Shown here: in pieces, positions 33,163 through 49,651 of the stretch
How the letters are laid out: the number at the start of each line of letters is the position of its first letter
Numbering within the stretch: the stretch's first letter is position 1
Notes under the pieces: model-generated
What the model was told of the DNA's origin: nothing
What the model saw: the letters and a program-made list of their open reading frames with translations, nothing else
The model's database searches: none
Assembly (NCBI GenBank): GCA_963662275.1
Contig: OY759316.1
Coordinates: 672,001-736,000 of the forward strand
DNA from: Candidatus Cloacimonadales bacterium
GTDB lineage: Bacteria > Cloacimonadota > Cloacimonadia > Cloacimonadales > DAONDQ01
Length of the DNA stretch: 64,000 nt
Direction: 5' to 3'
Made by a program: the position numbers and the translations under genes

Positions 33163-34082
33163 TGATAATACCCCAAAAGTTTGATCATCAGTGCAATCAA
33201 ACCTAAAGCAGCAGAGCTGATAAGCATGATGGGTATTTGCAGTAATTTAAAACGAGCCATGACTGATTCAACAATACCTATGATGACATTCACAAAAAAC
33301 ATGCCGATGATAAACACAGCAACTTGCTGCCAGAGAGCTTCAAACCTCAACGGCACTACCAAATTCACGAGTAGTCCGCTAAATATCCACAACTTGAGGG
33401 AAGAGGCATATTCAATATAGGCTAGATCCGGTCCGCTTGCATCAAGGATCATGACTTCATGAATCATAGTCAGTTCAAGATGAGTATTCGGATCATCGAC
33501 TGGAATACGTGAATTCTCAGTTAATAGAATAAAAAACCAGGCAAAGGAAACCATCACAAGTAATGCTGCGGAAGTCTGCCAATCAGTGATGGAAATACCA
33601 GAGGATATATCTGATAAACCAAGGCTGCCTGTATGAAGAATTAGCACAAGGAAGCCTAAAAATAAAGCCGGTTCAGCCAATGCAGCAAATTGTACTTCTC
33701 TGCTGGCTCCCATACCCTCAAATGCAGAACCGGTATCCAATGCCAGTAGAACAGTTGCAAACCTAGCCAAGCCAAGCAAGTAGATCAGCAGGATAAAATC
33801 TCCTGAAAAAGTAACAGGAGCAGACATTCCACCCCAGGGAAGTATCAGGGTTGCAAGAATTAGACATGTTAAAATTACTGAAGGAGCTAAGCGTGTTACT
33901 AAAGTCGTTGTTCTGCTATACACGCTTCCCTTCTGCAAGAGTTTAAATATGTCAAAATATAATTGAAAGACACTTGGTCCTTTCCTTCCTGCAAATATAG
34001 ACTTCACACGATTAATCACACCGAAAAGAAGCGGAGATAATATCCAGGCACATGCAGGAAAAATGAAAGATGAATAGTTCAT
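33159..34082 (-). CDS. hyfC: HyfC/HycD (NuoH-like) membrane subunit
   Basis: GRKGPSVFQ, GASRE and RIPVDDPNTHLELTMIHE; true start at MNYSS overlaps the hyfB stop (ATGA). Confidence 0.85.
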   Translation of the reverse strand: MNYSSFIFPACAWILSPLLFGVINRVKSIFAGRKGPSVFQLYFDIFKLLQKGSVYSRTTTLVTRLAPSVILTCLILATLILPWGGMSAPVTFSGDFILLIYLLGLARFATVLLALDTGSAFEGMGASREVQFAALAEPALFLGFLVLILHTGSLGLSDISSGISITDWQTSAALLVMVSFAWFFILLTENSRIPVDDPNTHLELTMIHEVMILDASGPDLAYIEYASSLKLWIFSGLLVNLVVPLRFEALWQQVAVFIIGMFFVNVIIGIVESVMARFKLLQIPIMLISSAALGLIALMIKLLGYYQ

Positions 34083-36064
34083 TGTGCAAATCCAACTTTC
34101 CAGATGAGAAGAATGATCAAAGTCAATGCAAGGTATAAAAGGTATCCGTGCAAATTGCCATGCTGTAACTTCCGAAAAGGAGAAATCCATTTAGCGACTA
34201 GCTTGAATAATGGTTCAAAAAGCTGTTTCTTCATCACATCAGGTGTATCAGTATGGAACGTGGATTTCGCAGGGAAATATCCTTCTATCTCCTTCCCTTC
34301 TTTCTTCGTACTTAAAACTATCTTGAATAAGCTTGCCAGGGGTTGTGCGTATGAGGAAGCAGTGTATTGCATGCGGGATGTAGGTTTAGCATATCCGCAA
34401 TCCCAAGTTCCTGTAATCCCAATTTGTTTGGCACGAGGCAAAGCCTTTCTGAATAAATATATTAAACCAGCTAGTAAAAAAACAGCTATAAAAAAGATAC
34501 TGATCTTGGTTAAAATGGTTATCATACCTAAAGTAGGATTCACAAAACCATAGACACTGCTGCTTGCCAGTGTTTGTACAGGTGGTAAGATCCAATTGAT
34601 GGTAAGAGGAGCAAAAAGACCGATTAATATACATGAAATGGCAAGAATTGCCATAGGATATTTCATCATCCCATCCACTTCATGTACATGTTCAGAATAT
34701 TCAATTCTTTGCTCTCCTAAGAAAATGATGCCAAATGCCTTGGTAAAGCAAGCAACAGCTAGACCACCAATTAATGCTAATCCAACTAGAACACATGCTG
34801 CCAGGATGATAGGACCCGGTAAGGCAGACTGGATACCGCTGATGCCTGCCAGGTAAATATAAAACTCACTGATAAAACCATTCAGGGGAGGCAATCCGGC
34901 AATGGCAGCAGAACCTATGAGGAAAGTTGTTCCTGTCCAACGCATACGTTTAATTAAACCACCCAATTGCTCAATGTCTCTTGTTCCGGTACTATGAGCT
35001 ACAGCTCCGGCACCGAAGAATAATAGGCTTTTAAAGATAGCATGATTCAGCACATGCAGCAATCCACCACCAAAGCCGAAAAGGATGAGGGCAGGAATAT
35101 TCCAGGATACTCCTAAAACACCTACACCAAGACCAATGGTGATGATACCGATGTTTTCCACACTGTGATAAGCGAGTAAACGTTTGATATCATGTTGTGC
35201 TAAGGCAAAAACAACTCCAAAAACACCGGATGTGATTCCGATCAGTACTAAAGCCCATCCCCAAAAGGCTGAAGGCGTTCCCAATAAAACCAGTACTCGT
35301 AAAATACCGTATATGCCTGTTTTAATCATCACACCGGACATTAAAGCTGAAATATGGCTCGGTGCAGCAGGATGCGCTTCCGGGAGCCAAATATGCAAAG
35401 GGATGAAACCAGCTTTCACACCAAATCCGAAGAGAGCTAAAAGAAATAAAATACCGCCTTGCCAGGCGATTGGATGCACAAGCGACATTTGATCGAACTG
35501 CATGGAACCGGCACTGCTTCCCAGCCAGGCAAAAAATATCAGCAAGGCTGCAGTTCCAATATGTGTAGCTACGAGATATGTCCAACCCGCTTCCCTCACT
35601 TTCGCATTTTCATGATCAAACATCACCAGGAAGAAGGAACTGACAGCCATTAGTTCCCAAACAATTAGAAACATCAGCCCATTCCTGGATACCATGAGCA
35701 GAAGCATACTAATAACCAGGATGCAATAGAAAAACCAGTGAGAAGATAATCTTCGCTTTTCTTGGGCTAGATATGATTTACCATACAGGATGGCTAATGG
35801 AGAAATGAGTAGGATGGGAATACAGAAAAATGCTGATAAAGCATCCATCCCAAAAGAAAGGGTTCCCCCAAACAGAGACCAATTGAAGTCGAGGGGTATT
35901 TGAGTATTACCACGTAAAGTATTAAAAACGGGCACAAATATGATTGCACTACCTAACCAAACACCAATAATAGAAGTTAGGGAATTGCTACGATTGTCTT
36001 CTAAAATAAGTGAAAATACCCCGCCGCAAAAGATAATGAAACACCCAGCTATAAATAAGAGCAT
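34079..36064 (-). CDS. hyfB: HyfB/HycC-like antiporter-type membrane subunit
   Basis: WELMAVSS, HIWLPEAHPAAP, LLAYHSVENIG and WDCGY. Confidence 0.85.
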   Translation of the reverse strand: MLLFIAGCFIIFCGGVFSLILEDNRSNSLTSIIGVWLGSAIIFVPVFNTLRGNTQIPLDFNWSLFGGTLSFGMDALSAFFCIPILLISPLAILYGKSYLAQEKRRLSSHWFFYCILVISMLLLMVSRNGLMFLIVWELMAVSSFFLVMFDHENAKVREAGWTYLVATHIGTAALLIFFAWLGSSAGSMQFDQMSLVHPIAWQGGILFLLALFGFGVKAGFIPLHIWLPEAHPAAPSHISALMSGVMIKTGIYGILRVLVLLGTPSAFWGWALVLIGITSGVFGVVFALAQHDIKRLLAYHSVENIGIITIGLGVGVLGVSWNIPALILFGFGGGLLHVLNHAIFKSLLFFGAGAVAHSTGTRDIEQLGGLIKRMRWTGTTFLIGSAAIAGLPPLNGFISEFYIYLAGISGIQSALPGPIILAACVLVGLALIGGLAVACFTKAFGIIFLGEQRIEYSEHVHEVDGMMKYPMAILAISCILIGLFAPLTINWILPPVQTLASSSVYGFVNPTLGMITILTKISIFFIAVFLLAGLIYLFRKALPRAKQIGITGTWDCGYAKPTSRMQYTASSYAQPLASLFKIVLSTKKEGKEIEGYFPAKSTFHTDTPDVMKKQLFEPLFKLVAKWISPFRKLQHGNLHGYLLYLALTLIILLIWKVGFAQ

Positions 36065-36065
36065 C

Positions 36066-36776
36066 TCAGCCTTTCAATTGTCCTTCACATAAACGTTCTT
36101 CAGCTTCCTGGAAGACTTGAAGAATAGTATCTTCTGAGGCTACAGAAATAATTGTCTCCTTGCAGTGTTGATCATGTAATAAACAAGCAAGTTTTGCCAA
36201 TATACGCAGATGTGTGCTGACATTTGGAGAGATGATGGAAAATAGTATATGCACAGGTTTTCCATCTAAAGCGCTATAATCAATCGGATTTTCCAGGAAT
36301 GCTAATGAGATTAAAGGCTGATTAACGTAACCTACCAGAGTACCGCTGGCATGGGGAATAGCAATGCCATTTCCGATTCCGGTGGAGTAAAGGTCTTCCC
36401 GTGCAAGGAACATTTGAAGTATGGGTTTCATTTCGGGAGAGGCAAGCCCTTTAACCAATTTCAAGGCATTATGCAGTACTTCACTTTTTGTGACTCCACC
36501 AACCTGGTAAAAGATTCCACCATGCTGCAGCATATTACTAACTGAAATATCAATATCTTTCTGGGGAAATTCAAAGCTGACTTTCCTGGTAAGTGCCAGT
36601 AGATTATCCACATCAACCAATTCTAAGTATATCTCATTCCCAAGTTTATGTGTATTGAGACGACCGCTGTCAATCCATTGGTAAACTTTCTTTTGTGAAA
36701 CACCTAGTCTGTCTGCTGCTTCTTTCACTGAAATCACGTGTCTACCTCCGTAGCTGATTAATTTGTTGATTGTCAT
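36066..36776 (-). CDS. Excisionase-type HTH fused to a PTS EIIA (Ntr/Fru-type) domain
   Basis: SVKEAADRLGVSQKKVYQWI (HTH_17); REDLYSTGIGNGIAIPHA with the phospho-His retained. Confidence 0.85.
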   Translation of the reverse strand: MTINKLISYGGRHVISVKEAADRLGVSQKKVYQWIDSGRLNTHKLGNEIYLELVDVDNLLALTRKVSFEFPQKDIDISVSNMLQHGGIFYQVGGVTKSEVLHNALKLVKGLASPEMKPILQMFLAREDLYSTGIGNGIAIPHASGTLVGYVNQPLISLAFLENPIDYSALDGKPVHILFSIISPNVSTHLRILAKLACLLHDQHCKETIISVASEDTILQVFQEAEERLCEGQLKG

Positions 36777-36842
36777 TTTTAGAATGATTATTTAAAATGT
36801 CAAAGAAAAGAGGTAATTATTCGTAATTAATGCAAAAAGAGG

Positions 36843-36972
36843 TTAGGTGCTAGGTGTTAGGTGCTAGGTGCTAGGTGTTAGGTGCTAGGTACTAGGTGTT
36901 AGGTTTTAGGTACTAGGTGTTAGGTGTTAGGTACTAGGTGTTAGGTGTTAGGTACTAGGTGTTAGGTGCTAG
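36843..36972. repeat. Heptamer tandem repeat TAGGT(GT/GC/AC/TT), ~18 units
   Basis: Directly visible. Confidence 0.95.
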
Positions 36973-37244
36973 TGGTTAGAGGATAGAGCTTTTTTATACA
37001 CCCCCTTTAAAATCAGGAGAACGCTAAAGAGAAATAAGCGGAACATGACTGAACTATCAACGAGAAAAGTCTCGATTATGCCTCGGTTATTATATAGGTG
37101 GCTTTCTTGTGACAAGAAAGAGTTAAGAGTGGGGAAAGAGGATGGGGATAAGTTAAAACTGTTAAAACAATTATGGATATATCGATAAAACACTTCAAAG
37201 GAAAATAAATACGTATTGAAAGAATATGAAGTTCGGAGAACGGA

Positions 37245-37284
37245 ATTCTGCTAGCCCAGGAAGGACTTCCTGGGCTAGCAGAAT
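37245..37284. repeat. Perfect palindrome (19-bp arms)
   Basis: ATTCTGCTAGCCCAGGAAG-GA-CTTCCTGGGCTAGCAGAAT. Confidence 0.85.
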
Positions 37285-37366
37285 GACATCCTACGGATTG
37301 AATTTAGGCAGAGTAGGGGCGCATGGCAATACGCCCTTCATTACTTATTCGGGTGTTAAATGAGGA

Positions 37367-37560
37367 TTTGGAGTTCAATTGCCCTTAATCGATTACCAAT
37401 GAATACCTGACTAAAAGGGAAAATGGACTGTATATGAAAGTTAAGAGTTTGGAGTTCAAATGCCCTAAACAAATTATTATTGAATACCTGATTAAAAGGG
37501 CATTCGGACTTCAAACTCGACCTTTCATCGTTGGTAGCGAAAACCTGTTTCTGAGAAGTT
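37367..37560 (+). repeat. MITE-like dispersed repeat, copy A
   Basis: TTGGAGTTCAAATGCCCT...AAAAGGGC..GGACTTCA...GCGAAAACCTGT; homologous to 38381-38620 (inverted) and 61337-61464. Confidence 0.8.
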
Positions 37561-38093
37561 CAAAGCCGATCTTTCATGTAAAGTTCGAATTTCAATTTAT
37601 CTGGATAATTTCCAAAGTCTCGAAGGAAATCTGAACTCTAAACCAGCAGAAGCCAGGGGAGTCCGAAACGCACGGGGTGAGGTGTTCAGGTCTGCTCTTT
37701 AAAACTTAATTAGCTTTAACCAATCGATAAAAAGTCTGCTATACAATTAAGTATGTTTCATCTAGGACTCATCTAGGCATTATCTAGGGATCATCTAGAC
37801 TTTGTTAGATTTTCCTAGGAAGATGCTGTATTCATATTCTTTTTCAACTTTTTTTGTATTGGAAGAGGAATCCTTGTGGCACACTCTTTGTACCTAAATG
37901 AGATACCAAACAGGTACTAGCCAGGAACTAGTCAGGTAGTAACCAGGTTCTAAAGTATTTTAGTTTTTGACTAGCTTCTGATTAGTAGGTTATTAGTTTT
38001 ACTTGTATTTGTCTTTCAAGGGCGGTTTGAAGAAGCCGGAAAGGGTAGAAGTGACATGAGACCAGAAGCTAGGAACTACGTGCAGATGGATAT

Positions 38094-38351
38094 TCACATT
38101 CTCTTTGCATATGCCTTCCAAGCCGGATGCTTGATCATTTCTGCTTTTGCAGTTTTCTCCGCGATCCCATATTCAAGTTTCATTGTTGTTATCATGTATT
38201 GTGTCATTCCTTTGAGTACATCATCGTAGCTTGTCAAATTACCCACTTGATCAGTACATTGAGTACAATATGGATTCAGCGGATTTTCTCCACCATACTG
38301 TTCAGTTGTTTCCATAGGCATTCCACAGCTTTTGCACGTTTGTGTGACCAT
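38094..38351 (-). CDS. Zinc-ribbon domain protein (Zn_ribbon_2 type)
   Basis: CKSCGMP...YCTQC...PAWK; GAGGAG RBS. Confidence 0.85.
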   Translation of the reverse strand: MVTQTCKSCGMPMETTEQYGGENPLNPYCTQCTDQVGNLTSYDDVLKGMTQYMITTMKLEYGIAEKTAKAEMIKHPAWKAYAKRM

Positions 38352-38380
38352 TAATTCTCCTCGTAATACTGTCAGTTTTT

Positions 38381-38620
38381 AAACTTCCCGGAAGACAGGT
38401 TTTCGCTGCCGATGATGAAAGGTCGATTATGAAGTCCACTTGCCCTTTTAATCATATGCTCATTTAAAATTAGCTAGGGCAAATGAACTCCAAAATCTTA
38501 GCTTTCATGCAAAATCCATTTGTCCTTTTAGTTAAGTATTCAATGATAATTTGTTAAGGGCATTTGAACTCCAAACTCTTGGCAATTATATGAACTCCAA
38601 AGCCATTGTTTTCATACAAA
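38381..38620 (-). repeat. MITE-like dispersed repeat, copy B (inverted relative to copy A)
   Basis: Reverse complement matches copy A unit by unit. Confidence 0.8.
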
Positions 38621-38755
38621 TTCATTAATAAGATAACGTAATAAAAACAGAAAACAATAAGCAATTTGCTGATGAAGATCAGATCGGAAATGACAACTCA
38701 CTTTTCGCTGGAATGACAGATCTCTTTCACTTTGTGTATAGTTTTTTTTAATATC

Positions 38756-39697
38756 CTAATCAAAATTCAGAGTTTTTTCGATGGAAACAGTATCTCCATG
38801 ATTCTGTCTTCGTCCCTGGTGCACAATGAGTTCTGCAAGAAGTCCGAGAGAGAAAAGCTGCAAACCGGCAAGAATGAGTAAAACACCCAGGAAGAGTAAA
38901 GGTCTGTTGGTTAGAGGCATACTAAAAAACAACTTGGCAATACTTAAATAGAGGGTAATGAGAAAACCAAGCAAGGTAAGTACAGTACCCAAGCCACCAA
39001 AAAAATATAAGGGGCTGCGAATGTACTGGGTGACAAGTTTCACAGTAAGCAGGTCAAAGAAACCTCTCAGGTAACGTTCAATTCCATATTTTGAAACACC
39101 ATGTTCACGGGAGCGGTGCTGTACAGGAATTTCCCCAACTTTGTAGCCTTTTGCATAAGCTAAAGCTGGAATATATCTATGCATTTCACCATAGACATCG
39201 ATGTTTTTGATTACTTCGCGTTTGTATGCTTTAAAACCACAATTATAATCATGCAGTTTCAATTTGAATGTATTTTGGGTTACTGAGTTGAATAACTTAG
39301 AAGGAATTCGCTTATGAAGAGGGTCGAGTCTCTTTTTCTTCCAGCCGGATACCATATCGTAGCCTTCTTCAATCTTTTTCAGAAAATTTGGTATTTCAAT
39401 AGGATTATCCTGTAAATCTGCATCCATTGTGAATACAATATCACCACTTGCTAATCGAAAACCGGTATTCAATCCGGCAGCCTTACCAAAGTTCTTTCGG
39501 AATTTGATGACTTTGACTTTCGGGTCATTAGAAGCTATTTTGCTTAAAACATCGAAACTTCCATCATTACTGCCATCATCAATAAAAATGATTTCATAAT
39601 CATGACCATTCAGGTTCTGTAGAATTTCTTTGTACAGAATTTCGATTGTGTCTTTTTCATTGAACAATGGAATTACAAAGGATAACAGCATAATCAT
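38756..39697 (-). CDS. Glycosyltransferase family 2 (polyprenol-phosphate glycosyltransferase, ArnC/DPM1-like) with 2 C-terminal TM helices
   Basis: SFVIPLFNE, IDDGSND, NFGKAAGL, MDADLQD and GEMHRYIP. Confidence 0.9.
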   Translation of the reverse strand: MIMLLSFVIPLFNEKDTIEILYKEILQNLNGHDYEIIFIDDGSNDGSFDVLSKIASNDPKVKVIKFRKNFGKAAGLNTGFRLASGDIVFTMDADLQDNPIEIPNFLKKIEEGYDMVSGWKKKRLDPLHKRIPSKLFNSVTQNTFKLKLHDYNCGFKAYKREVIKNIDVYGEMHRYIPALAYAKGYKVGEIPVQHRSREHGVSKYGIERYLRGFFDLLTVKLVTQYIRSPLYFFGGLGTVLTLLGFLITLYLSIAKLFFSMPLTNRPLLFLGVLLILAGLQLFSLGLLAELIVHQGRRQNHGDTVSIEKTLNFD

Positions 39698-39738
39698 TCC
39701 TCTTTCTAATTTCTTATACATTGAACTGGGAGTTACCC

Positions 39739-39808
39739 AACCGCCTGAAGTCGGCGCTACTAAACTGCCTGAAGACGGAGCTACTAAACCGCCTGAAGAC
39801 GGAGCTAC
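39739..39808 (-). repeat. Three tandem 24-bp REP-like units
   Basis: AACCGCCTGAAGACGGAGCTACTA-type unit; the minus strand starts with GTAG. Confidence 0.8.
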
Positions 39809-39811
39809 CTT

Positions 39812-40408
39812 TTAAATAAATATAGAAACCAGTGACATCACGATTCCTGCGATTAATGGAATCCTGATATTATCGTCAACCGGAATATTCGAGATTTCGG
39901 ATAAAGTAGTTGCCAGGGCACCAGCTAAAGCGATGAAAGGAGGCAAGAAAAAAAGACCAAAGATAAAGGTACTGGTAAAACAAGCTATTCCTCCTTCAAG
40001 ACTCTTCTTCGTTCCGGCGATCTTTCTTTTACCAAATGGCATCCCGATAATGGCTGCAAAAGTATCTCCAATCGAGAGAAAAGCCATGGAACAAAAACAT
40101 ATTGTCGGACTTAAAAAAGCAACACAAAGAACTGAAGATACCATCATATAGGTAGCACCGGTAAAATCTTTCCGTTCGTGTGAACGAAGCAGCAAACCGA
40201 ATAATTTATGAAAAATCCTTTTCACGGTCGGTCTTTCCAACCTAATCAGCTCGATGATAATAGCAAGAATGCAGAGAACGAGTACAATCCTAAACATCAA
40301 GGTTCGATTATTATGCAGAATATACCTGTAGGTGAGTGGTATCACCATAGAACTCAGGTGTATCGATTTTCGAAGAGTTTCCTTGATGGCTTGAGGGTTA
40401 ATTACCAT
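39812..40408 (-). CDS. CTP-dependent diacylglycerol/polyprenol kinase family (DGK1/SEC59/VTE5)
   Basis: RKSIH, GDTFAAIIG..FG, KKSLEG and DDNIRIP motifs. Confidence 0.85.
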   Translation of the reverse strand: MVINPQAIKETLRKSIHLSSMVIPLTYRYILHNNRTLMFRIVLVLCILAIIIELIRLERPTVKRIFHKLFGLLLRSHERKDFTGATYMMVSSVLCVAFLSPTICFCSMAFLSIGDTFAAIIGMPFGKRKIAGTKKSLEGGIACFTSTFIFGLFFLPPFIALAGALATTLSEISNIPVDDNIRIPLIAGIVMSLVSIFI

Positions 40409-40490
40409 GAGCCGTCCTCTTTAATGAATCATCTTCGCAGCTCCGGGTTTAGCCGGTTGATATATGGATAAAAACATGAACCATTCCTTA

Positions 40491-41684
40491 TCAATGAATC
40501 ATATCAGTTAAATACGATTTCGCAATTTTCGCAAACAGTAAAGGATGATTCTTCAGTATTGAGAAGAATAATGCCTTTAAGGAGAGACTTTGTATCGGTA
40601 TTTTAGCAATTTCATGAAACAATTCATTCATTCTCTTATCAGTCGCAGAGTAAAGTTTATTTTTTAGAATATAGGCGATTTCCTGTTTCTTTCTAAATTG
40701 TGCATCCCATGCCGATTGATAAGAAGAAAGGAATTTACGGCTGTAATCTTTTTGTTTGATTGCTTTTGCACCAATCTCTCCAGCCATCTTTCCTGCATGC
40801 ATGGCATATTCAATACCTCCGCCTGTGAGCGGATTTGTCTGCCGGGCAGCATCTCCTACAAGCATCACCTGATCATGATAGATCTTTGATAGTGAGACAG
40901 CAATCGGTACTCCTCCTGCAATAAATGAAGAAGCACTACTGCCGGGGAAATGTGTTCCTATGAATGAATCCAGATATTCTTTTGCCGTTTTATCTGTTTT
41001 ACGGGCTGCAACCAAACCCAGTCCAACGTTTGCTTGTGATTTGGATTTGGGAAAAACCCAGGCATAACCTCCAGGGGCAATTTCGTTCCCGAAATACACC
41101 GCACAGCGGTTATGAGGAATATCCAGATTTTCCAATCGATATTGGACACAGGAATCAATATCCATTAATGCCAGGTTAGTATTCAAGCCAAACCAGCGCC
41201 CGACTCTAGATTCAACACCATCAGCACCTATCACAATATAGCATTTCACGATATGAATTTCATCAAAAATCCTATAGGTCACTTCTATCTTAGAATCATT
41301 ACTATACATTGAATTGATTACGTCTGCTTTAGTCAGCAGTTCTGCACCAGCAGTGATCGCCAATTGAGCGATATAATTATCAAAACGTGTCCGATCCAGG
41401 ACAAAACCCACTTCCGGGCTGATCATTTCGACCATGGTATTATCCGGTGAATATATATTGACTCCTGATATGGCGCAGCATTTCATTTCATCAGGGATAT
41501 CCAGAATGTCAGACAGATTAGATTGAAATACACCTTCTGCACATCTTACAGGAATTCCAATCGTACGATCTCTTTCCAATACCAGTACCCTCACTCCGTT
41601 TTGAGCTGCATACAATGCAGTAGTTAAACCGGCAGGTCCACCGCCAATAATTACGATATCGTAGAAATCAGAACGTTCTTTCAT
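40491..41684 (-). CDS. Geranylgeranyl reductase family flavoprotein (archaeal DGGGPL-reductase-like)
   Basis: GGGPAG, PVRCAEG, GADGVES, PGGYAWVFPK (YxWxFP) and VGDAARQTNPLTGGGI. Confidence 0.85.
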   Translation of the reverse strand: MKERSDFYDIVIIGGGPAGLTTALYAAQNGVRVLVLERDRTIGIPVRCAEGVFQSNLSDILDIPDEMKCCAISGVNIYSPDNTMVEMISPEVGFVLDRTRFDNYIAQLAITAGAELLTKADVINSMYSNDSKIEVTYRIFDEIHIVKCYIVIGADGVESRVGRWFGLNTNLALMDIDSCVQYRLENLDIPHNRCAVYFGNEIAPGGYAWVFPKSKSQANVGLGLVAARKTDKTAKEYLDSFIGTHFPGSSASSFIAGGVPIAVSLSKIYHDQVMLVGDAARQTNPLTGGGIEYAMHAGKMAGEIGAKAIKQKDYSRKFLSSYQSAWDAQFRKKQEIAYILKNKLYSATDKRMNELFHEIAKIPIQSLSLKALFFSILKNHPLLFAKIAKSYLTDMIH

Positions 41685-41750
41685 TGGTTTCTAACTCCCT
41701 AACCCCTTCTTGACAAGAGAGCGGGGAAAAGATTCAGTAAGATCGGAATC

Positions 41751-41942
41751 TTACTCCACATTATTCAGAGATTCGGCTTTTTGCTCTACAGCACCAATTG
41801 GACAGGTCTTAACACAGTTCAAACAATTGGTACATTTTGCGGGATTGAAATCTACAAGATTCTCACGAAGAATAAGGGCATCTGCCGGGCATACACTGAT
41901 GCATGCACCGCATAGATCACAAATTGTAGGGTTTATTATCAT
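41751..41942 (-). CDS. 2x[4Fe-4S] ferredoxin
   Basis: CDLCGACISVCP and CTNCLNCVKTCP. Confidence 0.9.
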   Translation of the reverse strand: MIINPTICDLCGACISVCPADALILRENLVDFNPAKCTNCLNCVKTCPIGAVEQKAESLNNVE

Positions 41943-43500
41943 CTTTCAAAGCTAAGCGATAGTCAATAATTCTAAGTGTATGATGCGATTTCCATTGTAC
42001 CAGGAGATCATAATGAAGACCATCAGTAATGGGTTTTGTTTCATATTCAAGAGTAAAACAAAGCAGGTTATTTGGAACTAATACATTCCTTAATAGTAGT
42101 ATTGGTTCGGTATTTCCCATTCCATAAGGTTGTAACAGATTTAGTTTATCCCACAATTCATCGGTGAAATCCTCTAACATGATAGGACAGGAAATTTGAA
42201 TACTTTGACCTTCTAATATTTGATGTTCATTTAAGTGAAGAAATTCCGTAAATTTCTCAATAAATAAGTAGATTTCTTCTGGTTTCATCGTAAATCCAGC
42301 AGCTTTCACATGTCCACCATACTGGATGAGATGCTCTTCACAATAGCGGAATGCATCCACCATATTGAAACCTTCTGAACATCTGCCTTCACAGACGATC
42401 ACATCCTGTTTATTCTTTAAGAATATGGCGGGAACATGAAGCTTATTTGTGACTTGACTGGCAGCCATTCCAAGTAAGGAATATGGAATTTTATCCGTAT
42501 TATCATAATAAATAAAACCAGGACCATCATGATCTTCAATGAGGGAAACAACAAAGTTCTGAATATTCCGTACCTGGCTTTCATGTTCAGTTCTAATCGC
42601 ATCCAGATTCCTAAAATAATCATTCTTTTCCGCTCCGGAAGCTAAGAGAAATTGCATGATCAGATGATTTCCACCTTCCTGCCGTCCATTCGAGAAGAGT
42701 TTCGCAATATTATTCAGAAAATTCATTTTTTCACAATATGTATATAGGTCATTCGTGAAATTCAAAAGAAAATCAAAGCTGTCATCATGCATTTGATAAA
42801 TGTTGTCTAAGGCATAACGGACTAGAATGCGATTCACTCCATCAATCGGTACTTTATCTGCCACCGAACCAATGGCAGTCCATATATAATAACAGCGAGG
42901 GACATCAATCTTCAACATCTTTGCTAAATAACGGATGATCAATAATGTGAGACCAACACCTGCCGGCATTTTATAAGGATATTTATCGTCTGTCCTTTTA
43001 GGATTCACAACCGCATACGCTTTAGGTAATTGATCATTGTAGGTCAGGTGATGATCTGTGATTATCACATCACATCCCATTTGATTTAACTTCTCCACAC
43101 CGTCGAAAGCCACTATACCATTATCAACGGTTACTACCAGCGTATATTTCCCTTGTTCTACAAATTGCAGGAAACTCTCTTGTATGCCATGAGATTCTGT
43201 CATTCGATTGGGAACAAAATAATGATGATTTTGAAATCCGCATTTATCAAGAAAATCATAGAGAATATAGGTGCTGGTTAATCCATCGGCATCATCATGA
43301 CCGAAGATTACGATCTTTTCCTTACGATATAAGCCATTGATGATACGTTGTGCAGCCATATCAATATCTGAAAGGAAAGCCTCATCGGGAAGTTGCTCCA
43401 AACCTGCCCGTAATTGTTGGACAGTTAGATTCTTTTGGATCAGAATCTGATCGAATATAGGGAGTTTAGACTTTTCGGGAAGAACCCATTTCAGGTTCAT
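41917..43500 (-). CDS. recJ: RecJ-like DHH/DHHA1 phosphoesterase
   Basis: GHDDADG, TVDNGI, TDHH, GGHVKAAG and QPYGMGN. Confidence 0.75.
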   Translation of the reverse strand: MNLKWVLPEKSKLPIFDQILIQKNLTVQQLRAGLEQLPDEAFLSDIDMAAQRIINGLYRKEKIVIFGHDDADGLTSTYILYDFLDKCGFQNHHYFVPNRMTESHGIQESFLQFVEQGKYTLVVTVDNGIVAFDGVEKLNQMGCDVIITDHHLTYNDQLPKAYAVVNPKRTDDKYPYKMPAGVGLTLLIIRYLAKMLKIDVPRCYYIWTAIGSVADKVPIDGVNRILVRYALDNIYQMHDDSFDFLLNFTNDLYTYCEKMNFLNNIAKLFSNGRQEGGNHLIMQFLLASGAEKNDYFRNLDAIRTEHESQVRNIQNFVVSLIEDHDGPGFIYYDNTDKIPYSLLGMAASQVTNKLHVPAIFLKNKQDVIVCEGRCSEGFNMVDAFRYCEEHLIQYGGHVKAAGFTMKPEEIYLFIEKFTEFLHLNEHQILEGQSIQISCPIMLEDFTDELWDKLNLLQPYGMGNTEPILLLRNVLVPNNLLCFTLEYETKPITDGLHYDLLVQWKSHHTLRIIDYRLALKDDNKPYNL

Positions 43501-44720
43501 TATCGAATTTCCTCAACTTTAGGGATTTCACGGGGAGCAGTTCGTCTTTGTTCCTGTTTGAAAATATCAAAACCTGTAATCCCAAAAAGAAACATTAGAG
43601 AACTTTCTTGAACGGCGTTCTTATTTGAATCTCCACGCATCAAGTATTGAAATCCAAGATCAATGCGATTTTCCGGATTCTTCAAAGGTAAGGAGAAACC
43701 AATGGATGCACCTTTTTCATCAATACTGGCATTATTTTTTTGGAAAGGAAGCTTTCTCCATGAAATGCCTCCCCGCAAGGGAAGCCTGCGAAAGAATTTA
43801 TCTGCGTTTTGATTTGCATCATAAGCAATACCAATACCAACTTTCCAGCTATCTTCAGTATTCTCAGGATTATCAACTGCTTTCCACATATCATAATGGA
43901 CATCGTATGAAGTACGTAATACATCGGAATGATTGAATGTCATTCCCAATCCAAAACGATTGGGCAGGTTATAATGAGATGTTCCTTGATTCTCTGTTGA
44001 GGATAGAGTTTTGTATATTATTTCACCTTTCAGTTTTGAAGCTGAAGTATAGGTAAAAGCTGTTGAAAAACGATCCGTTTTCTTCATGATACCAATGGAA
44101 ATACCTCCATTAGAATAAGATTTTGTCATGCTATAGTATGTATTAAAAGGACTACTCCCTGAATCTTGGGAAATCGCACGATTCTCATGTCCGAGGTAAT
44201 AATTGATGGCTACACCAAAATCAACTAATTTGAAAGGATAGGAATACATAAGATCAACGCGATATAAATAAGAATCAACAGAATTATATTCAGTGAAGTG
44301 AATAGAAGATAAAGTATCGGTACTTTGATCCTTCACTACTCCTGAAGAAAGAGATTGGAATTGAAATCCTAACTTATGACTTGCAATTGGAATAGCCATA
44401 TTAAAATAAGGAAAATCCAGAGAATTATCTGTATATTTGGGATGAGATTTATCTTCATACCAAGTATCACCTGTCATGATTCCTGTCGAAAAAACAGCAT
44501 TTTTAATTCTTGAAATAAGTGCAGGATTCCCAAAACCGGTATTTAATCTATAAGAATCAGCCATTCCAGTATCACCCATACTGAAGCCATAGATATCATT
44601 GCCATAATACTGGTTGGGCAATCCCTGGAAGGAAAAGATTGAGTTCCCTGCCCATACGGGAACTATACTAATAAGTAATATAAATATGATTCCTACAAAT
44701 CTCTGTGTGGAAAGAGTCAT
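43500..44720 (-). CDS. Outer-membrane beta-barrel protein (FadL/PorV-like)
   Basis: Signal peptide; SMGDTGMA...NPALI N-terminal motif; amphipathic strands. Confidence 0.65.
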   Translation of the reverse strand: MTLSTQRFVGIIFILLISIVPVWAGNSIFSFQGLPNQYYGNDIYGFSMGDTGMADSYRLNTGFGNPALISRIKNAVFSTGIMTGDTWYEDKSHPKYTDNSLDFPYFNMAIPIASHKLGFQFQSLSSGVVKDQSTDTLSSIHFTEYNSVDSYLYRVDLMYSYPFKLVDFGVAINYYLGHENRAISQDSGSSPFNTYYSMTKSYSNGGISIGIMKKTDRFSTAFTYTSASKLKGEIIYKTLSSTENQGTSHYNLPNRFGLGMTFNHSDVLRTSYDVHYDMWKAVDNPENTEDSWKVGIGIAYDANQNADKFFRRLPLRGGISWRKLPFQKNNASIDEKGASIGFSLPLKNPENRIDLGFQYLMRGDSNKNAVQESSLMFLFGITGFDIFKQEQRRTAPREIPKVEEIR

Positions 44721-44807
44721 TCAATTCTCCTATAATCCTTTTCATATTATCAAAAATTAAGGAGGTTTGTCTATTGTCAATTTATCTTTATGGAGGCAGA
44801 AGGGAAT

Positions 44808-44942
44808 AGGTACTTGGTGCTAGGTGATAGGGAGCAGGGAGCAGTGGGTGAGTAGAAGGTTCATTGAGTGATTTCTCGCAGCTCTAAATCCCTCGATGAA
44901 CCGGTCTGGGCGAACACCTAACACCTAGTACCTAGCACCTAA
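44808..44942. repeat. Composite intergenic repeat (inverted TAGGTG/CACCTA heptamers around a central hairpin element)
   Basis: Resembles 48415-48876 and 61490-61550. Confidence 0.65.
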
Positions 44943-44947
44943 TCGCC

Positions 44948-46165
44948 CTACTCATACCTTAGAGCATTGATAATCTTCAGATTTGCTGCCTTCCTGGCTG
45001 GATACCATCCAAAGAAAATACCGACGGCTGTGGAAAAACAGAAAGCAAGAACAACTGACCAGATGCTTATACTCACAGGCCAGCCCTGTGTTTTGGAAAT
45101 AATTTGAGTTACACCGGAACCTAGAGCGATGCCTAGAAATCCACCTAAGAAACTGATCATGACTGATTCGACTAGAAATTGAAGCAGAATGTCTCTTTTC
45201 TTTGCTCCCACTGCTAAACGAATACCAATTTCCTTCGTTCTTTCCGTGACAGAAACAAACATGATATTCATGATCCCGATACCGCCCACTAGCAAGGAAA
45301 TACCAGCAATGCTGGCAAGTAATATGGTCATTGTCTTGGAAGTAGAATCGGCAGTTTGGGCAATATCAGTTTGCGAACGTATTTCAAAATTATCTTCATC
45401 ACCTTCATTGAGTTTATGACGAGTACGAAGTATTTGTCGCACTTCCTCCTGTACAAAAGGGATATCAGCTTGACTGGTGCAGGATATCTGAATCGACATA
45501 GGACGCCATTCGCCTAACAATCGTTTTTGAACTGTAGAAAATGGTGCCAGTATAGTATCATCCTGATCCTGTCCCATGGCATTTTGTCCTTTGGATGCAA
45601 TAACACCAATCACTCGGCAAGGGATGCTCCGAATTCTGATAACCTTGTTGATTGGATCATCATCAGCAAAGAGATTTGTTGCAACTGTTTGACCTATGAC
45701 ACATACTTTCGTAGAACCTCGCATATCATTATCAGTAAATGATATTCCGCTTGAAAGCTGCATATCACGAATTGTCAAATAAGATGGATAAACACCCATA
45801 ACAGATGTCCGCCAATTCTGGTTACCATAAATAACCTGGGCACCTGTCCTGACGACAGGAGAAATTTCATTGATGCGGATAGCCTGTTGCTGTATTGCGA
45901 TTGCATCTTCTTCACTCAAACTTAAAGCACTCCCTGCTTCCCCACGAGCACCGGACATTTGCCGGAATGATGGAAAAACCATCAGAACATTAGTACCCAT
46001 ACTGGCAATTTGAGCTTGGACAGAATTTCTGGCTCCTTGTCCTATGGCAAGAACAGAGATAACAGCAGCAACACCAATAATGACACCCAGCATCGTTAAA
46101 AAAGTACGTGTTCTATTTCTTTGTAATGAAAGCAAAGAAATGCGGAATGTTCCGTATAATGTCAT
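44948..46165 (-). CDS. macB: MacB-type ABC transporter permease
   Basis: LTMLGVIIGVAAV, GGIGIMNIM.VSVTERTKEIGIR and ALRYE. Confidence 0.9.
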   Translation of the reverse strand: MTLYGTFRISLLSLQRNRTRTFLTMLGVIIGVAAVISVLAIGQGARNSVQAQIASMGTNVLMVFPSFRQMSGARGEAGSALSLSEEDAIAIQQQAIRINEISPVVRTGAQVIYGNQNWRTSVMGVYPSYLTIRDMQLSSGISFTDNDMRGSTKVCVIGQTVATNLFADDDPINKVIRIRSIPCRVIGVIASKGQNAMGQDQDDTILAPFSTVQKRLLGEWRPMSIQISCTSQADIPFVQEEVRQILRTRHKLNEGDEDNFEIRSQTDIAQTADSTSKTMTILLASIAGISLLVGGIGIMNIMFVSVTERTKEIGIRLAVGAKKRDILLQFLVESVMISFLGGFLGIALGSGVTQIISKTQGWPVSISIWSVVLAFCFSTAVGIFFGWYPARKAANLKIINALRYE

Positions 46166-46905
46166 TCTGTATCCTCTAAAGGAGGGATTTTCTCCAATTC
46201 TATCGCAGCATCCTTAATTTGCGTAACCTGAAAATCTTTACTGATCTTCCCATCCCTGAAAATTACATTGCGTTGAGCAAATTGGGCAATATCTGCTTCA
46301 TGAGTAATCAGTAGAATTGTTTTCCCTTGCTTATTCAATTTTTGTAATATAGACATGATTTCATAGCTTGTATGAGTATCAAGATTACCGGTTGGTTCAT
46401 CAGCTAAAATCAGAATCGGATCATTCACTAAAGCACGGGCTATAGCAACTCGCTGCTGCTGTCCGCCGGATAATTGGTTAGGTAAATTATGAGAACGATC
46501 CTTCAATCCAACTCTTTCCAAAGCATCCTCAGCAATCTTTCGCATCTCTGCATGAGAGCGTTTCTTCCCATATAGAAGAGGTAGCATGACATTATCAATT
46601 GCTGAAGTCCTGGGTAGAAGATAGAATGATTGGAATACATACCCGATTCGCTCATTACGTATGATGGCTAATTCTTCCATCGAAAAGCCAGCAATCTCTT
46701 GACCATTCAGGAAATACTCACCTTTCGTAGCTGTATCCAAGCAGCCTACAATATTCATGAGTGTTGTTTTCCCAGAACCGGAAGCACCCATGATTGCCAC
46801 AAATTCTCCCTCTTTAATTGAGAAATCTACGCCACGTAACGCATGTACTGCCATGCCTTCAGCATCATAAATTTTTATCAGATGCTTGACTTCAAGGAGA
46901 TTCAT
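46162..46905 (-). CDS. MacB/LolD-type ABC transporter ATP-binding protein
   Basis: [23 protein letters not shown] and ADEPTGNLD; likely start MNLLEV. Confidence 0.9.
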
Positions 46906-46906
46906 A

Positions 46907-48337
46907 TTAATGACCTCTTGGTCCACCGCCACCAAAACCAGGAGCCTGGTTTTGACCGCCATTGGCTGAATTGTTCTTGGATTTGGAAGGTTGAATCCCA
47001 ATAACTACCTGGTCTCCAGCTTTCAATTTTCCTTGTATTTCTGTAAAAGTACCATCAGATATGCCTGTCATGACTCTACGAACTTGTAGAGAATCATTCA
47101 CTAAGATATATACTTTCCCTGGTTCCATCCCTTTAATAGGATTTTGTCTTCTGTTATTTTTTCCTCCGAATCCATGACCACGACCCATCCCGGCAAATCT
47201 TTCACCTAGCTTTTGTCCAGAACCGGATAGACTATCTCTCTGTCCTTTTCCTTTCCCTGATATTCTATCACCCTGTCTTCCTCCGGCTGGCATGCGTTGA
47301 CCTTCTGCTAAATTCGTTTTTGCAGGTTGTGTAACATGAGTTGAATTCATATTCATTGTCGTTGAGTGTATTCCCTGACCACTAGATGAATCTCTTGCTC
47401 CACCTTTGTTTCTTCCGAAACTGCCGGCAGGCTTAAAACGCAAAGCAGCAACAGGAGCTTTCAATATTTTATCTTTAGAATCTATCAGAATTGTCAGATT
47501 CGCTGTCATACCGGGTAGTAAAGATTGATCTTCATTCACAACCGTCACAACAACATTGTAAGTGACGACATTATTTGCTGTAGAAGGCTGCATACGAACC
47601 TGTTTCACTTTTCCATCATACTCACGGTCAGGATAAGCATCTACATTGAACGTGACAGTTTGATCTGTTTTCACTTTTCCAATATCTGCTTCATCCACAC
47701 TGGCAATCACTTCCATTTGAGTCAAATCCTTGGCAATACTGAATAGAGTTGGAGTACTGAAGCTTGCTGCAACTGTCTGACCAACATCTACAGCGCGAGC
47801 AATTACAATACCGCTGATTGGTGCCGTAATCGTTGCATTTTCAAGATTTGTTTTTGCACGAGTCAATTGAGATAGCGATGTTTTGACATTCTCTTGCGCT
47901 AATTCATAGGAGATTGTTGCATTATCGACTTCTGATTGGGAAACCATTTTCTGTTTCGCTAAAGTTAGAATTGGATCCATTTGCAGTTTAGCTAATTGCA
48001 TGGAAAGCTTGGCTTTTTGGACATTCGCAGTTGCTTCCGTCACAGCAGTCTGTAATGAAGTAGGATCAATTTGAGCGATTATTTCACCTTTTTGTACATG
48101 AGAATTAAAATCTACATTAATCGTTTCTATCGTCCCGGATACTTGAGTACCCACATTCACCATTTCAACAGCTCCAAGTGTACCAGTTGCTGTTACAGTT
48201 TCACGGATTTCACCTTCAGTTATTTCTGAAGTACGATATTGTATCTTTTCCTTTTTGAAGATCAGTTTCTTTCCAAAAGTGAAGAATGCAATGACAATGA
48301 TCAATAATACGATAATCCAGATATATCGTTTCTTCAT
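46907..48337 (-). CDS. macA: MacA-type periplasmic adaptor (membrane fusion protein)
   Basis: VGTQVSG, ITAPISGIV and VDEADIG. Confidence 0.88.
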   Translation of the reverse strand: MKKRYIWIIVLLIIVIAFFTFGKKLIFKKEKIQYRTSEITEGEIRETVTATGTLGAVEMVNVGTQVSGTIETINVDFNSHVQKGEIIAQIDPTSLQTAVTEATANVQKAKLSMQLAKLQMDPILTLAKQKMVSQSEVDNATISYELAQENVKTSLSQLTRAKTNLENATITAPISGIVIARAVDVGQTVAASFSTPTLFSIAKDLTQMEVIASVDEADIGKVKTDQTVTFNVDAYPDREYDGKVKQVRMQPSTANNVVTYNVVVTVVNEDQSLLPGMTANLTILIDSKDKILKAPVAALRFKPAGSFGRNKGGARDSSSGQGIHSTTMNMNSTHVTQPAKTNLAEGQRMPAGGRQGDRISGKGKGQRDSLSGSGQKLGERFAGMGRGHGFGGKNNRRQNPIKGMEPGKVYILVNDSLQVRRVMTGISDGTFTEIQGKLKAGDQVVIGIQPSKSKNNSANGGQNQAPGFGGGGPRGH

Positions 48338-48740
48338 GGGAACTCCTTATCGAAATAGCTTATATCAAAGTATAACAACGATAGTTTGGTTTTCCAGCTA
48401 CATTTTTTCAGAAGGTGTCAGATATCAGGTGTCAGGTGCTAGGTTTTAGGTGTTAGGAAATAGTCCAGAGTGAGTTCACTGATTTGTCATCCTGCGGGGA
48501 TCTATCTGGTTCGTATCAGGGAGAAGGCATCATTTACCGAGTTTCGTTGCATACATCGGTCATTTCGATACAATTTCTCCTTCATCGACTCACCCTCTAA
48601 TCCCTCTCTTGTTCCAAAAGAGGGAAGTCTTTGTTCACTCAAAGAACCTTACTCTCTATTACCCAACACCTAGCACCTTCTTCCTGTGCATCTCGATACA
48701 ATTACTCGCAAGCTCGTAATCACTCGATGAACAGTCCGGG

Positions 48741-48876
48741 CTAACACCTAGCACCTAACACCTAGCACCTAACACCTAGCACCTAACACCTAAAACCTAA
48801 CACCTAGCACCTAACACCTAGCACCTAACACCTAGCACCTAACACCTAGCACCTAACACCTAAAACCTAACACCTA
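48741..48876. repeat. Heptamer tandem repeat (A/G)CACCTA, ~19 units
   Basis: Directly visible; reverse complement of the 36843 array type. Confidence 0.95.
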
Positions 48877-48892
48877 TTTTATACCTTCTGCC

Positions 48893-49651
48893 CTACTTTG
48901 CTGGTATGTTGAAGAACTTCAGGGCGTTTCTTGTTGTAATTTCAGCGATTTCCTTTGGCGTTTGCAAACGGATATCTGCTATCTTCTCGACAACCAGTAA
49001 TAGATTTAAGGGGCTGTTTCTTTTCCCCCGTAAGGGTAAAGGAGAAAGATAAGGACAATCTGTTTCAACAAAAAAAGAATCCTCAGGTATCATCCTGATA
49101 ACATCATGCAAGTTCGAATTGTTATATGTTATATTGCCTGTAAAGGATAGTTTCCATCCTTCCTTGATGAGTTTTTCTGCAAACACAATATCCCCTGAAA
49201 AACAATGGAATACTACTTTTTTTGCCTGGAGTTTCTTGAGTATCTCGTAACATTCTTCATGGGCATCCCGATCATGAATAACGAGAGGCAGATTGTATTC
49301 CTGGGAAAGAATAATCTGATCTTCAAAGACTTCTTTTTGAGTTTTCTTTGGTGATATATTCCTGAATAGATCCAATCCTATTTCTCCAATTGCCACAACT
49401 TTCGGATGACGAGCTAATTGTTTTATAACATCCGGTTGATAATCAGAAGCCTCATGGGGATGATAACCAACTGTGGCATAAACAAAATCATATTTTTCTG
49501 CAAGACGAACTGCGTCTTCAGACGTTTCTTTATTATAACCGATATCGATAATATTAATAATATCTTCCTGACGGCATTGACGAATCAATTGATCTCTATC
49601 CTGATCAAAATCTGGTAAATCCAAATGGGCATGTGTTTCTACGATTTTCAT
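48893..49651 (-). CDS. tatD: TatD family hydrolase/DNase
   Basis: ETHAHL, GYHPHE, GEIGLD, IHDRDA, FHCFSG and ETDCPYL. Confidence 0.92.
   Translation of the reverse strand: MKIVETHAHLDLPDFDQDRDQLIRQCRQEDIINIIDIGYNKETSEDAVRLAEKYDFVYATVGYHPHEASDYQPDVIKQLARHPKVVAIGEIGLDLFRNISPKKTQKEVFEDQIILSQEYNLPLVIHDRDAHEECYEILKKLQAKKVVFHCFSGDIVFAEKLIKEGWKLSFTGNITYNNSNLHDVIRMIPEDSFFVETDCPYLSPLPLRGKRNSPLNLLLVVEKIADIRLQTPKEIAEITTRNALKFFNIPAK

Follow-up and report, generated by a model that had tools for sequence, protein, structure and literature searches.

A predicted archaeal-type prenyl reductase and its neighbouring ferredoxin, orphaned in a Cloacimonadales genome that lacks the ether-lipid synthases

When a bacterial chromosome carries, in a single co-directional run, a predicted archaeal-type geranylgeranyl reductase (GGR), a small ferredoxin (Fd), a putative polyprenol kinase (Kin) and a putative polyprenyl-phosphate glycosyltransferase (GT2), the question arises whether these genes form one arm of an isoprenoid lipid pathway or are distinct units which share a site. 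The locus that raises this question lies at positions 38756-44720 of a 64,000-nucleotide stretch of contig OY759316.1 (the window) from the genome of a Candidatus Cloacimonadales bacterium. A reading of the window from its letters alone, here called the sequence-only reading, had seen six co-directional open reading frames (ORFs) in this interval, starting with an outer-membrane barrel gene and a RecJ-like gene, and had proposed that they could make up that arm of an archaeal-like isoprenoid lipid pathway in which chains are saturated, phosphorylated and glycosylated, or the same arm for a dolichol-like saturated carrier. The six frames are indeed there, all on the minus strand, but the run resolves into three units (barrel with RecJ, Fd with GGR, and Kin with GT2) and is no single pathway cluster. 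The best explanation, to which we assign a probability of about 0.62, is a composite of these units in which the Fd-GGR pair has been orphaned and the Kin-GT2 pair is separate.

According to this composite explanation, Fd would pass electrons to the FAD of GGR, which would saturate the C=C bonds of geranylgeranyl-type chains. In most Cloacimonadota the two proteins would serve the ether-lipid genes, which are encoded elsewhere on the chromosome in an operon of a trans-prenyl synthase (IPPS), the DGGGP synthase (DGGGPS) and the GGGP synthase (GGGPS), and the clade of the host would have lost DGGGPS and GGGPS from between IPPS and a CpsB-like gene, so that Fd-GGR was left orphaned. GGR would most likely still reduce a remaining prenyl substrate, which may be GGPP made by the GGPPS-like synthase that the genome keeps, or else a polyprenyl-phosphate tail, in a role that appears dispensable; sister lineages have lost GGR repeatedly. 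Kin, probably a prenol kinase, and GT2, probably a polyprenyl-phosphate sugar synthase, would merely share the backbone TatD-barrel-RecJ-[Fd-GGR]-Kin-GT2.

The reductase and its ferredoxin

GGR is a predicted FAD-dependent geranylgeranyl (prenyl) reductase of 397 amino acids (40491-41684, minus strand), which exceeds the cut-offs of both TIGR02032 (228.3 bits against 158.8) and PF22578 (91.2 bits against 27), and whose best solved match is the Thermoplasma structure 3OZ2 (E 6.3e-67, residues 6-384). The CAEG and YAWVFP motifs quoted in the sequence-only reading are both present: GGGPAG occupies residues 14-19, RCAEG residues 47-51 including Cys48 (window 41543-41532), and PGGYAWVFP residues 204-212, with YAWVFP at 207-212 (window 41066-41049). 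They can be set beside the family motifs GxGxxG, Cys47 and PxxYxWxFP given in the accessible part of the review PMC10821996. Among equivalog models the best is that of the Thermoplasmatales DGGGPL reductase (NF041160), at 262 bits below its cut-off of 780, and the thresholds of the other DGGGPL reductase models are likewise not reached (NF041080, 156 bits, cut-off 580; NF041385, 115 bits, cut-off 700). Scores against the models of BchP/ChlP (TIGR02023, 152 bits, cut-off 343.3), MenJ (NF045655, 85 bits, cut-off 700) and FixC (NF007542, 50 bits, cut-off 610) are also below threshold.

A tree of 86 GGR rows was computed with a quick IQ-TREE search, from which locus L102 was excluded for its in-frame stop, together with any match that covered under 300 residues of the query. 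In this tree a clade with support 96 unites the Cloacimonadota with the Ignavibacteriota, one Cytophagia row and one Aggregatilineales row; it sits among Thermoplasmatota and Methanobacteriota and far from the Chlorobiaceae and betaproteobacterial rows. The phylogeny proposed earlier as a check, against archaeal GGRs, BchP/ChlP, MenJ and FixC, therefore has a favourable outcome in that GGR nests among archaeal GGRs and far from BchP-like rows, the rows themselves including no named MenJ or FixC. The TIGR02032 score, the match to 3OZ2 and the position in the tree bear out the classification of GGR, by sequence, as an archaeal-type isoprenoid reductase.

A second, distant member of the family is encoded elsewhere in the host genome (G000:C1:1286132-1287412, L063:8133-9413); it is 30% identical to GGR and scores 45 bits against GGR_cat. 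Its flanking genes encode a FAD-dependent protein (PF21688) and an 850-residue MprF-like lysyl-phosphatidylglycerol synthase; some 6 kb upstream there are genes for an IS91-type transposase and an integrase. The paralogue was dropped from consideration because it has these two genes as neighbours and no isoprenoid genes beside it.

The ferredoxin, of 63 amino acids (41751-41942, minus strand), is of the 2x[4Fe-4S] kind, with two CxxCxxCxxxCP motifs (PF13237, E 2.9e-14), and its gene ends 66 nt before the start of GGR. The reductase is accordingly accompanied by its own 2x[4Fe-4S] ferredoxin gene in the same way as the Methanosarcina type of GGR: the parts of PMC10821996 that were available report that the Methanosarcina acetivorans enzyme needs a small ferredoxin encoded in the same locus (Isobe 2014, Ogawa 2014), and that a 4Fe-4S protein is encoded in the locus of the Thermoplasma acidophilum reductase. 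The gene-level likeness to Methanosarcina is extended by natural fusions of Fd with GGR, one of 467 amino acids in a genome of the same genus as the host (G001, L015:4240-5643) and one of 469 amino acids in family f8 (G008, L020:4486-5895). G018 and G139 have long open frames that hint at additional fusions.

The pairing is also found outside the phylum, where a scan of species-representative genomes gave 79 GGR loci, of which the first 50 were examined. Of the 24 loci in which GGR is at least 33% identical, 18 have Fd immediately upstream of it, and they include Thermoplasmatota, Methanobacteriota, Ignavibacteria, Cytophagia, Anaerolineae and Poribacteria; the 26 loci with a more distant GGR all lack this arrangement. 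Fd and GGR thus form an archaeal-type reductase module common to archaea and bacteria. Family membership, conserved pairing, the fusions and the Methanosarcina precedent all point to electron transfer from Fd to GGR, and the window ferredoxin would be the dedicated donor of GGR; the partnership suggested in the sequence-only reading is well supported by the conserved adjacency and by the fusions in G001 and G008. On the Candidatus Poribacteria chromosome OZ242351.1 (L102), DGGGPS, Fd, GGR and GGGPS follow one another co-directionally, and the GGR stretch contains an in-frame stop in translation.

Loss of the synthases and the fate of the reductase

The host genome (G000) is a single 4.38-Mb contig rated 99.97% complete, and the genes that would make a substrate for archaeal-type ether lipids are missing from it. 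There are no matches in it to the GGGP synthase model PF01884, whose controls gave hits in 7 of 14 named genomes, to the UbiA-family model PF01040, which would find DGGGPS and for which the controls matched in 14 of 14, or to the model of the CDP-archaeol synthase CarS, PF01864; tblastn searches with the GGGPS and DGGGPS proteins of four relatives found nothing anywhere in it. In the accessible portion of PMC7852524, CarS is undetected in the published Cloacimonetes metagenome-assembled genomes too. The genome search which the sequence-only reading had named as a check consequently returned none of GGGPS, DGGGPS and CarS, a result that this reading had itself listed as one that would refute its proposal.

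The absence can be localized by comparison with relatives. The gene order is IPPS-DGGGPS-GGGPS-CpsB-like in G016 and G007, and in G002 the genes are split between two contigs, with DGGGPS after IPPS on the first and GGGPS before the CpsB-like gene on the second. In the host, IPPS (C1:3163942-3164823) stands directly beside the CpsB-like gene (3163057-3163827), about 115 nt away, with no synthase between them. The Fd-GGR pair is orphaned in the host genome. The CpsB-like gene is also labelled CpsB/CapC-like, and its locus was compared with L070, L071 and L074; the IPPS beside the lost synthases is 96% identical between G000 and G001, far over the 73% median of the ORF pairs compared between them.

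The prenyl enzymes of the host comprise two short-chain trans-prenyl synthases and one UppS, along with one GT-C (PMT_2) gene, and no squalene or phytoene synthase was found in the genome. By a chain-length rule we provisionally take one of the two trans-prenyl synthases to be GGPPS-like and the other FPPS-like. The IPPS beside the missing synthases is kept in 185 of the 201 phylum genomes described below, including 79 of the 88 in family f3, so its retention is no evidence for a GGR substrate. A different UbiA-family gene (about 330-residue frames, E ~1e-26) is scattered over GGGPS-less genomes, namely G001 (C13:8877-9527) and 12 of the 88 of f3, and does not occur in G000.

A sample of 201 Cloacimonadota genomes was surveyed, with GGR called at E<=1e-60. 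GGR was found in 100 of them, GGGPS in 93 with strong matches and in one borderline case (G097), a UbiA-family gene in 107 and Kin in 184; a DGGGPS-type gene usually adjoins GGGPS. GGR and GGGPS occur together in 88 genomes, GGR alone in 12, GGGPS alone in 5 and neither in 96. In keeping with the earlier statement that Cloacimonetes have been reported to encode GGGPS and DGGGPS, GGR co-occurs with both across the phylum, with the host genome as an exception. The 12 genomes with GGR alone are the host and G001 (family f1), eight of family f12 (genera g19 and g38) and two of family f3 (genus g34); in f3, GGGPS is absent, GGR is absent from 86 of 88 genomes and Kin is present in 87 of 88. In all five genomes with GGGPS alone the cluster region is unassembled: the GT2 ortholog begins at base 1 of its contig in G025 and lies about 370 nt from a contig end in G142, G029 and G174 hold only a GT2 paralogue (42-45% identical), and G181, which is 75% complete, holds none. 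There is therefore no evaluable GGGPS-bearing genome without GGR.

A proxy species tree was built by a quick search from the barrel, RecJ and GT2 proteins, three linked genes, of 38 genomes. It places f1, f3 and f12, all of which lack GGGPS, on one side of a branch with support 99, and nests the GGR-bearing g34 among GGR-less f3 lineages. Because all the placed GGGPS-less genomes of the order fall in one clade, the loss of GGGPS was probably a single event, and in the simplest history DGGGPS and GGGPS were lost once, after which GGR disappeared several times independently, in most of f3 and in genus g12 of f12. Since GGR was lost repeatedly, and only after GGGPS in the evaluable genomes, we infer from this observed co-occurrence that Fd-GGR owes its main value in Cloacimonadota to the presence of GGGPS and DGGGPS.

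The reductase has also evolved differently where the synthases are gone. Nonsynonymous divergence (dN) of GGR was measured relative to that of its own neighbours, within genera or families, and medians were taken; these ratios were used because synonymous divergence (dS) is saturated (>1 or not computable) for most pairs. In the five GGGPS-bearing groups g33, g43, g20, f7 and f6, dN(GGR)/dN(GT2) is 0.71-1.09 and dN(GGR)/dN(RecJ) is 0.37-0.75. In the GGGPS-less groups the corresponding ratios are 1.95 and 1.30 for g19 (21 pairs) and 2.83 and 2.05 for g34 (1 pair), and the GT2 ratio is 3.12 for f1 (1 pair), for which no RecJ ratio was computed, RecJ being partial in G001. GGR therefore evolves some 2-3 times faster relative to its neighbours in the GGGPS-less clade. 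The three GGGPS-less lineages have long stems in the GGR tree (0.98, 0.98 and 0.34). The GGR proteins of G000 and G001 are 61% identical, whereas the median of 55 ORF pairs, a set that includes some spurious overlapping frames, is 73%. The motifs GxGxxG, PVRCAEG, PGxYxWxFPK, VGDxA and GGG are nonetheless invariant or nearly so in a 14-sequence alignment (A1) that includes all the GGGPS-less lineages. GGR is under weaker constraint in these lineages, yet it is still constrained.

The kinase-glycosyltransferase pair and the competing explanations

Kin is a 198-residue multi-pass membrane protein (39812-40408, minus strand). Taken alone it scores 14.8 bits (E 0.026) against PF01148 (CTP_transf_1), below the cut-off of 24 bits, passes no family or equivalog threshold, and has no match among the NCBIfam models even at E 10. 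The same Pfam model is matched at E<=0.01 by 15 of 22 aligned members of the Kin family (best 9.2e-8), and a profile of the family finds the Thermotoga maritima CdsA (4q2g) at E 0.02, in an alignment spanning the GD..A..G..GK..KSLEG motif. Close homologues, of which all the named ones are from Candidatus Cloacimonadota, carry the source names SEC59/DGK1/VTE5, dolichol kinase, phytol kinase and phosphatidate cytidylyltransferase, and atlas clusters agree. The DGK1/SEC59/VTE5 label given in the sequence-only reading thus finds some support in the relatives of Kin and their source names, whereas its own score stays below the threshold. Kin is classed by its sequence family as a CTP_transf_1 superfamily member, in likeness to the CTP-dependent prenol kinases of the SEC59/VTE5 type, and it is probably a CTP-dependent polyprenol or prenol kinase; its motif, GDxxAxxxGxxxGKxK...KSxEG without a CdsA-type C-terminal motif, would fit a kinase. 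A canonical CdsA is encoded elsewhere in the host genome, adjoining UppS. The idea that Kin might be the missing CarS was rejected on the grounds that Kin occurs in 87 of the 88 f3 genomes, all of them without GGGPS and 86 without GGR, and it is further disfavoured by the empty PF01864 search.

GT2, of 321 amino acids (38756-39721, minus strand), has a PF00535 domain at residues 14-174 (E 2e-36, 126 bits) and is of the ArnC/GtrB/DPM1 kind. Its best named models are ArnC (184.6 bits, cut-off 529) and PgfS (165.4 bits, cut-off 500), and it reaches no equivalog threshold of a named enzyme. C-terminal hydrophobic stretches, read by eye, lie at about residues 237-265 and 273-300, so that the catalytic domain is followed by C-terminal membrane helices, as in polyprenyl-phosphate glycosyltransferases; GT2 is probably a polyprenyl-phosphate sugar synthase. 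It is the best-conserved gene of the run, at 57-83% identity in relatives, and its start may be Met9 or Met11, since alignments of the relatives begin near residue 11.

Both genes belong to an arrangement that is wider than the reductase. When one locus was taken from each of 20 relatives of the same order, Fd, GGR and GT2 were neighbours in all 20, and Kin stood between GGR and GT2 in 18 of these, being absent from two f12 genomes, a gene order that is beyond chance; of the 19 loci long enough to show it, 17 have RecJ upstream. Ten loci without GGR were examined, eight from f3 and two from genus g12 of f12. They retain the barrel, RecJ, Kin and GT2, preceded by TatD in 8 of 10, with Fd-GGR missing and RecJ adjoining Kin in 10 of 10. 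Intermediate arrangements are RecJ-GGR-Kin-GT2, with the ferredoxin missing, in g34 and RecJ-Fd-GGR-GT2, with Kin missing, in g19 and g38 (Kin 0/7 in g19). Elsewhere in the class, six loci from other orders all have Fd and GGR close together and in the same direction, with gaps reaching some 640 nt; one has Kin adjacent, two have Kin-GT2 3.5-3.8 kb off, and in the other three, two of which end at a contig edge, both Kin and GT2 were unseen in the fetched stretch.

Because Fd-GGR and Kin-GT2 each occur without the other, the run is a conserved backbone which holds two separable pairs, and Kin-GT2 is a separate, near-universal Cloacimonadota pair. The synteny that had been offered as support for a joint pathway is kept within the order as regards the adjacency of Fd, GGR and GT2, but it does not bind Kin and GT2 to the reductase. 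The proposal that the two form an arm of a GGR pathway fails on their presence at the same site without Fd-GGR in all ten GGR-less loci, on the f3 counts given above, and on the first 50 loci outside the phylum, where Kin adjoins GGR in none and a GT2-like gene in one. The barrel and RecJ genes, which had been listed with the cluster, are conserved neighbours of unrelated function. The barrel gene (43500-44720, minus strand; 406 amino acids) encodes a FadL/TodX-family protein (PF03349, 35.9 bits, cut-off 29.7) that falls short of the BamG model NF053685 (141.2 bits, cut-off 250); it lies upstream of RecJ in GGR-bearing and GGR-less loci alike, and is part of the conserved backbone and outside the lipid module. 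The RecJ-type exonuclease gene (41917-43500, minus strand; 527 amino acids), with DHH, DHHA1 and RecJ_OB domains and 306 bits against the TIGR00644 cut-off of 396.9, is likewise a backbone gene. Barrel and RecJ overlap by 1 nt, and RecJ and Fd by 26 nt.

Several points weigh against the composite explanation. The phyletic association between GGR and GGGPS is confounded by descent, the species tree is a proxy from linked genes and a quick search, and the rate comparison concerns three related groups in which the pairs are non-independent. GGR is intact, with neither frameshift nor stop, in all 12 GGGPS-less genomes that bear it, and its dN/dS in g19 is 0.06-0.14, a rough value because dS exceeds 1 and is largely saturated; intactness and low dN/dS together speak for a real remaining function and against mere decay. 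In addition, the gap between GGR and GT2 is only 8-9 nt in the GGGPS-less f12, and GGR and Kin overlap by 4 nt in f11, possible signs that these genes are linked in function. However, close packing of genes says little here, because the unrelated RecJ and Fd genes also overlap in the window.

These points bear most directly on the alternative in which all four genes act together: Fd-GGR would saturate a polyprenyl phosphate to a dolichol-like carrier, Kin would phosphorylate it and GT2 would add a sugar, a role that would explain the survival of GGR after the loss of GGGPS. The co-directional adjacency of the four genes in 18 of 20 loci, the f12 spacing, the conserved motifs of an intact GGR and the retention of UppS, a GGPPS-like IPPS and a PMT_2 gene that could use the donor are all compatible with such a carrier, as is the report, in the available text of PMC10821996, that deletion of the Haloferax GGR ended the saturation of both diether lipids and dolichol phosphate. 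We nevertheless consider it unlikely, although it is the strongest of the alternatives, because Kin persists at the same chromosomal site in nearly all of f3 where GGR is gone, GGR persists without Kin in f12, Kin never adjoins GGR in the loci examined outside the phylum, the adjacency is equally common to the unrelated barrel and RecJ genes, and the repeated loss of GGR after that of GGGPS, never seen in evaluable GGGPS-bearing genomes, ties its main value to the ether-lipid genes. Somewhat harder to credit is the specific claim, made by analogy with the Haloferax GGR, that Fd-GGR would have been kept for a second job of saturating a polyprenyl-phosphate glycan carrier with the adjacent Kin and GT2; if it were true, the organism would be a bacterium with a dolichol-like, partly saturated sugar carrier.

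The opposite possibility, that Fd-GGR has had no substrate of consequence since the deletion of DGGGPS and GGGPS and awaits loss as a functionless relic, is comparably doubtful. It would account for the repeated losses in most of f3 and in g12, the loss of the ferredoxin in g34, the two- to threefold acceleration and the low identity between G000 and G001, but a relic would not be expected to be free of frameshifts and stops in every one of the 12 genomes, to keep all its catalytic and FAD motifs, to have dN/dS well under 1 where this can be estimated, or to persist in three families since a single ancestral loss of GGGPS. The principal proposal of the sequence-only reading, an arm of an archaeal-like ether-lipid pathway operating in this host, is very improbable. 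It draws on the archaeal-type GGR with its ferredoxin, on the GGGPS and DGGGPS carried by most Cloacimonadota and on the activity of the Cloacimonetes enzymes in E. coli (Villanueva et al. 2021, PMC7852524, as far as its available text goes), and it fails in a genome where the profile and tblastn searches for GGGPS, UbiA/DGGGPS and CarS are all empty and both synthases are missing from their syntenic site. Least probable of all, to the point of being scarcely credible, is that GGR is of the MenJ, BchP/ChlP or FixC type and acts on quinone or chlorophyll tails or in electron transfer: the FAD-dependent fold is shared and the models of these enzymes are weakly matched, but the scores are far under the cut-offs, the BchP-like rows are distant in the GGR tree (which holds no named MenJ or FixC rows), and the absence of any UbiA-family prenyltransferase from the host means that it has no MenA, UbiA or chlorophyll synthase. 

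Surroundings, precedents and meaning

A promoter and terminator scan of 36500-49000 gave counts near those of shuffled sequence (48 vs 36.9 and 9 vs 8.9) and is uninformative on operon boundaries, an Rfam search of 36000-45500 returned zero matches, and the 2-kb gap downstream of GT2 contains neither a large ORF nor an Rfam match. Imperfect inverted repeats of about 180 nt (37367-37548 and 38395-38623; 80-82% complementary, about 850-1000 nt apart) flank an 85-residue minus-strand ORF with a CxxC...CxxC pattern (38094-38351), and a heptamer, (TAGGTGY)n, repeated in tandem about 23 times (36829-36990), lies just upstream of a minus-strand gene for a protein with a helix-turn-helix and a PTS-EIIA domain (36066-36776). 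Further downstream of the run are Hydrogenase-4/Mrp-type membrane subunits (33159-36064; HyfB-like, 598 bits), and a MacA/MacB-type tripartite ABC efflux set (44948-48337) lies directly upstream of the barrel gene.

Among proteins of solved structure the best match to GGR is the Thermoplasma acidophilum DGGGPL reductase (3OZ2), with which it aligns over its full length and shares GxGxxG, Cys47, PxxYxWxFP and GGG; it differs in falling far short of the corresponding equivalog cut-off and in being found in a bacterial host without a pathway to the DGGGP substrate. The carrier alternative has its model in Haloferax volcanii, whose GGR saturates diether lipids and dolichol phosphate (Naparstek 2012, via the accessible part of PMC10821996), but this is an archaeon with dolichol, and the halophile equivalog gives the window GGR only 115 bits. 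The Cloacimonetes set of GGGPS, DGGGPS, polyprenyl synthase and GGR in PMC7852524 comes from the same phylum, and the same operon is present in relatives of the host; the host genome differs from it in having lost DGGGPS and GGGPS while keeping the polyprenyl synthase and Fd-GGR.

Part of this picture is already in print, as judged from the available portions of the sources, namely that Cloacimonetes GGRs are close to those of Euryarchaeota and that GGGPS and DGGGPS were later lost. The preprint 10.1101/2021.10.08.463351, in its accessible part, reports that, of 46 genomes, 24% have a GGGP synthase and 30% a DGGGP synthase, and suggests their loss in later-diverging Cloacimonadota. Neither the accessible parts of PMC7852524 and of this preprint nor full-text literature searching yielded an account, for Cloacimonadota, of an orphaned GGR, of its pairing with a ferredoxin or of the fusions.

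The locus does not represent a new kind of system, and its instructive twist is a reductase that is still present after its pathway has gone. Debates on the "lipid divide" draw on archaeal lipid genes found in bacteria, and this case shows that ether-lipid synthesis should not be concluded from an archaeal-type GGR alone, because the reductase can outlive the synthases. The natural Fd-GGR fusions are ready-made constructs for tests of the electron donor. The GGGPS-less clade, a mosaic of GGR retention and loss, is a natural experiment in what a GGR does once its main substrate pathway is gone.

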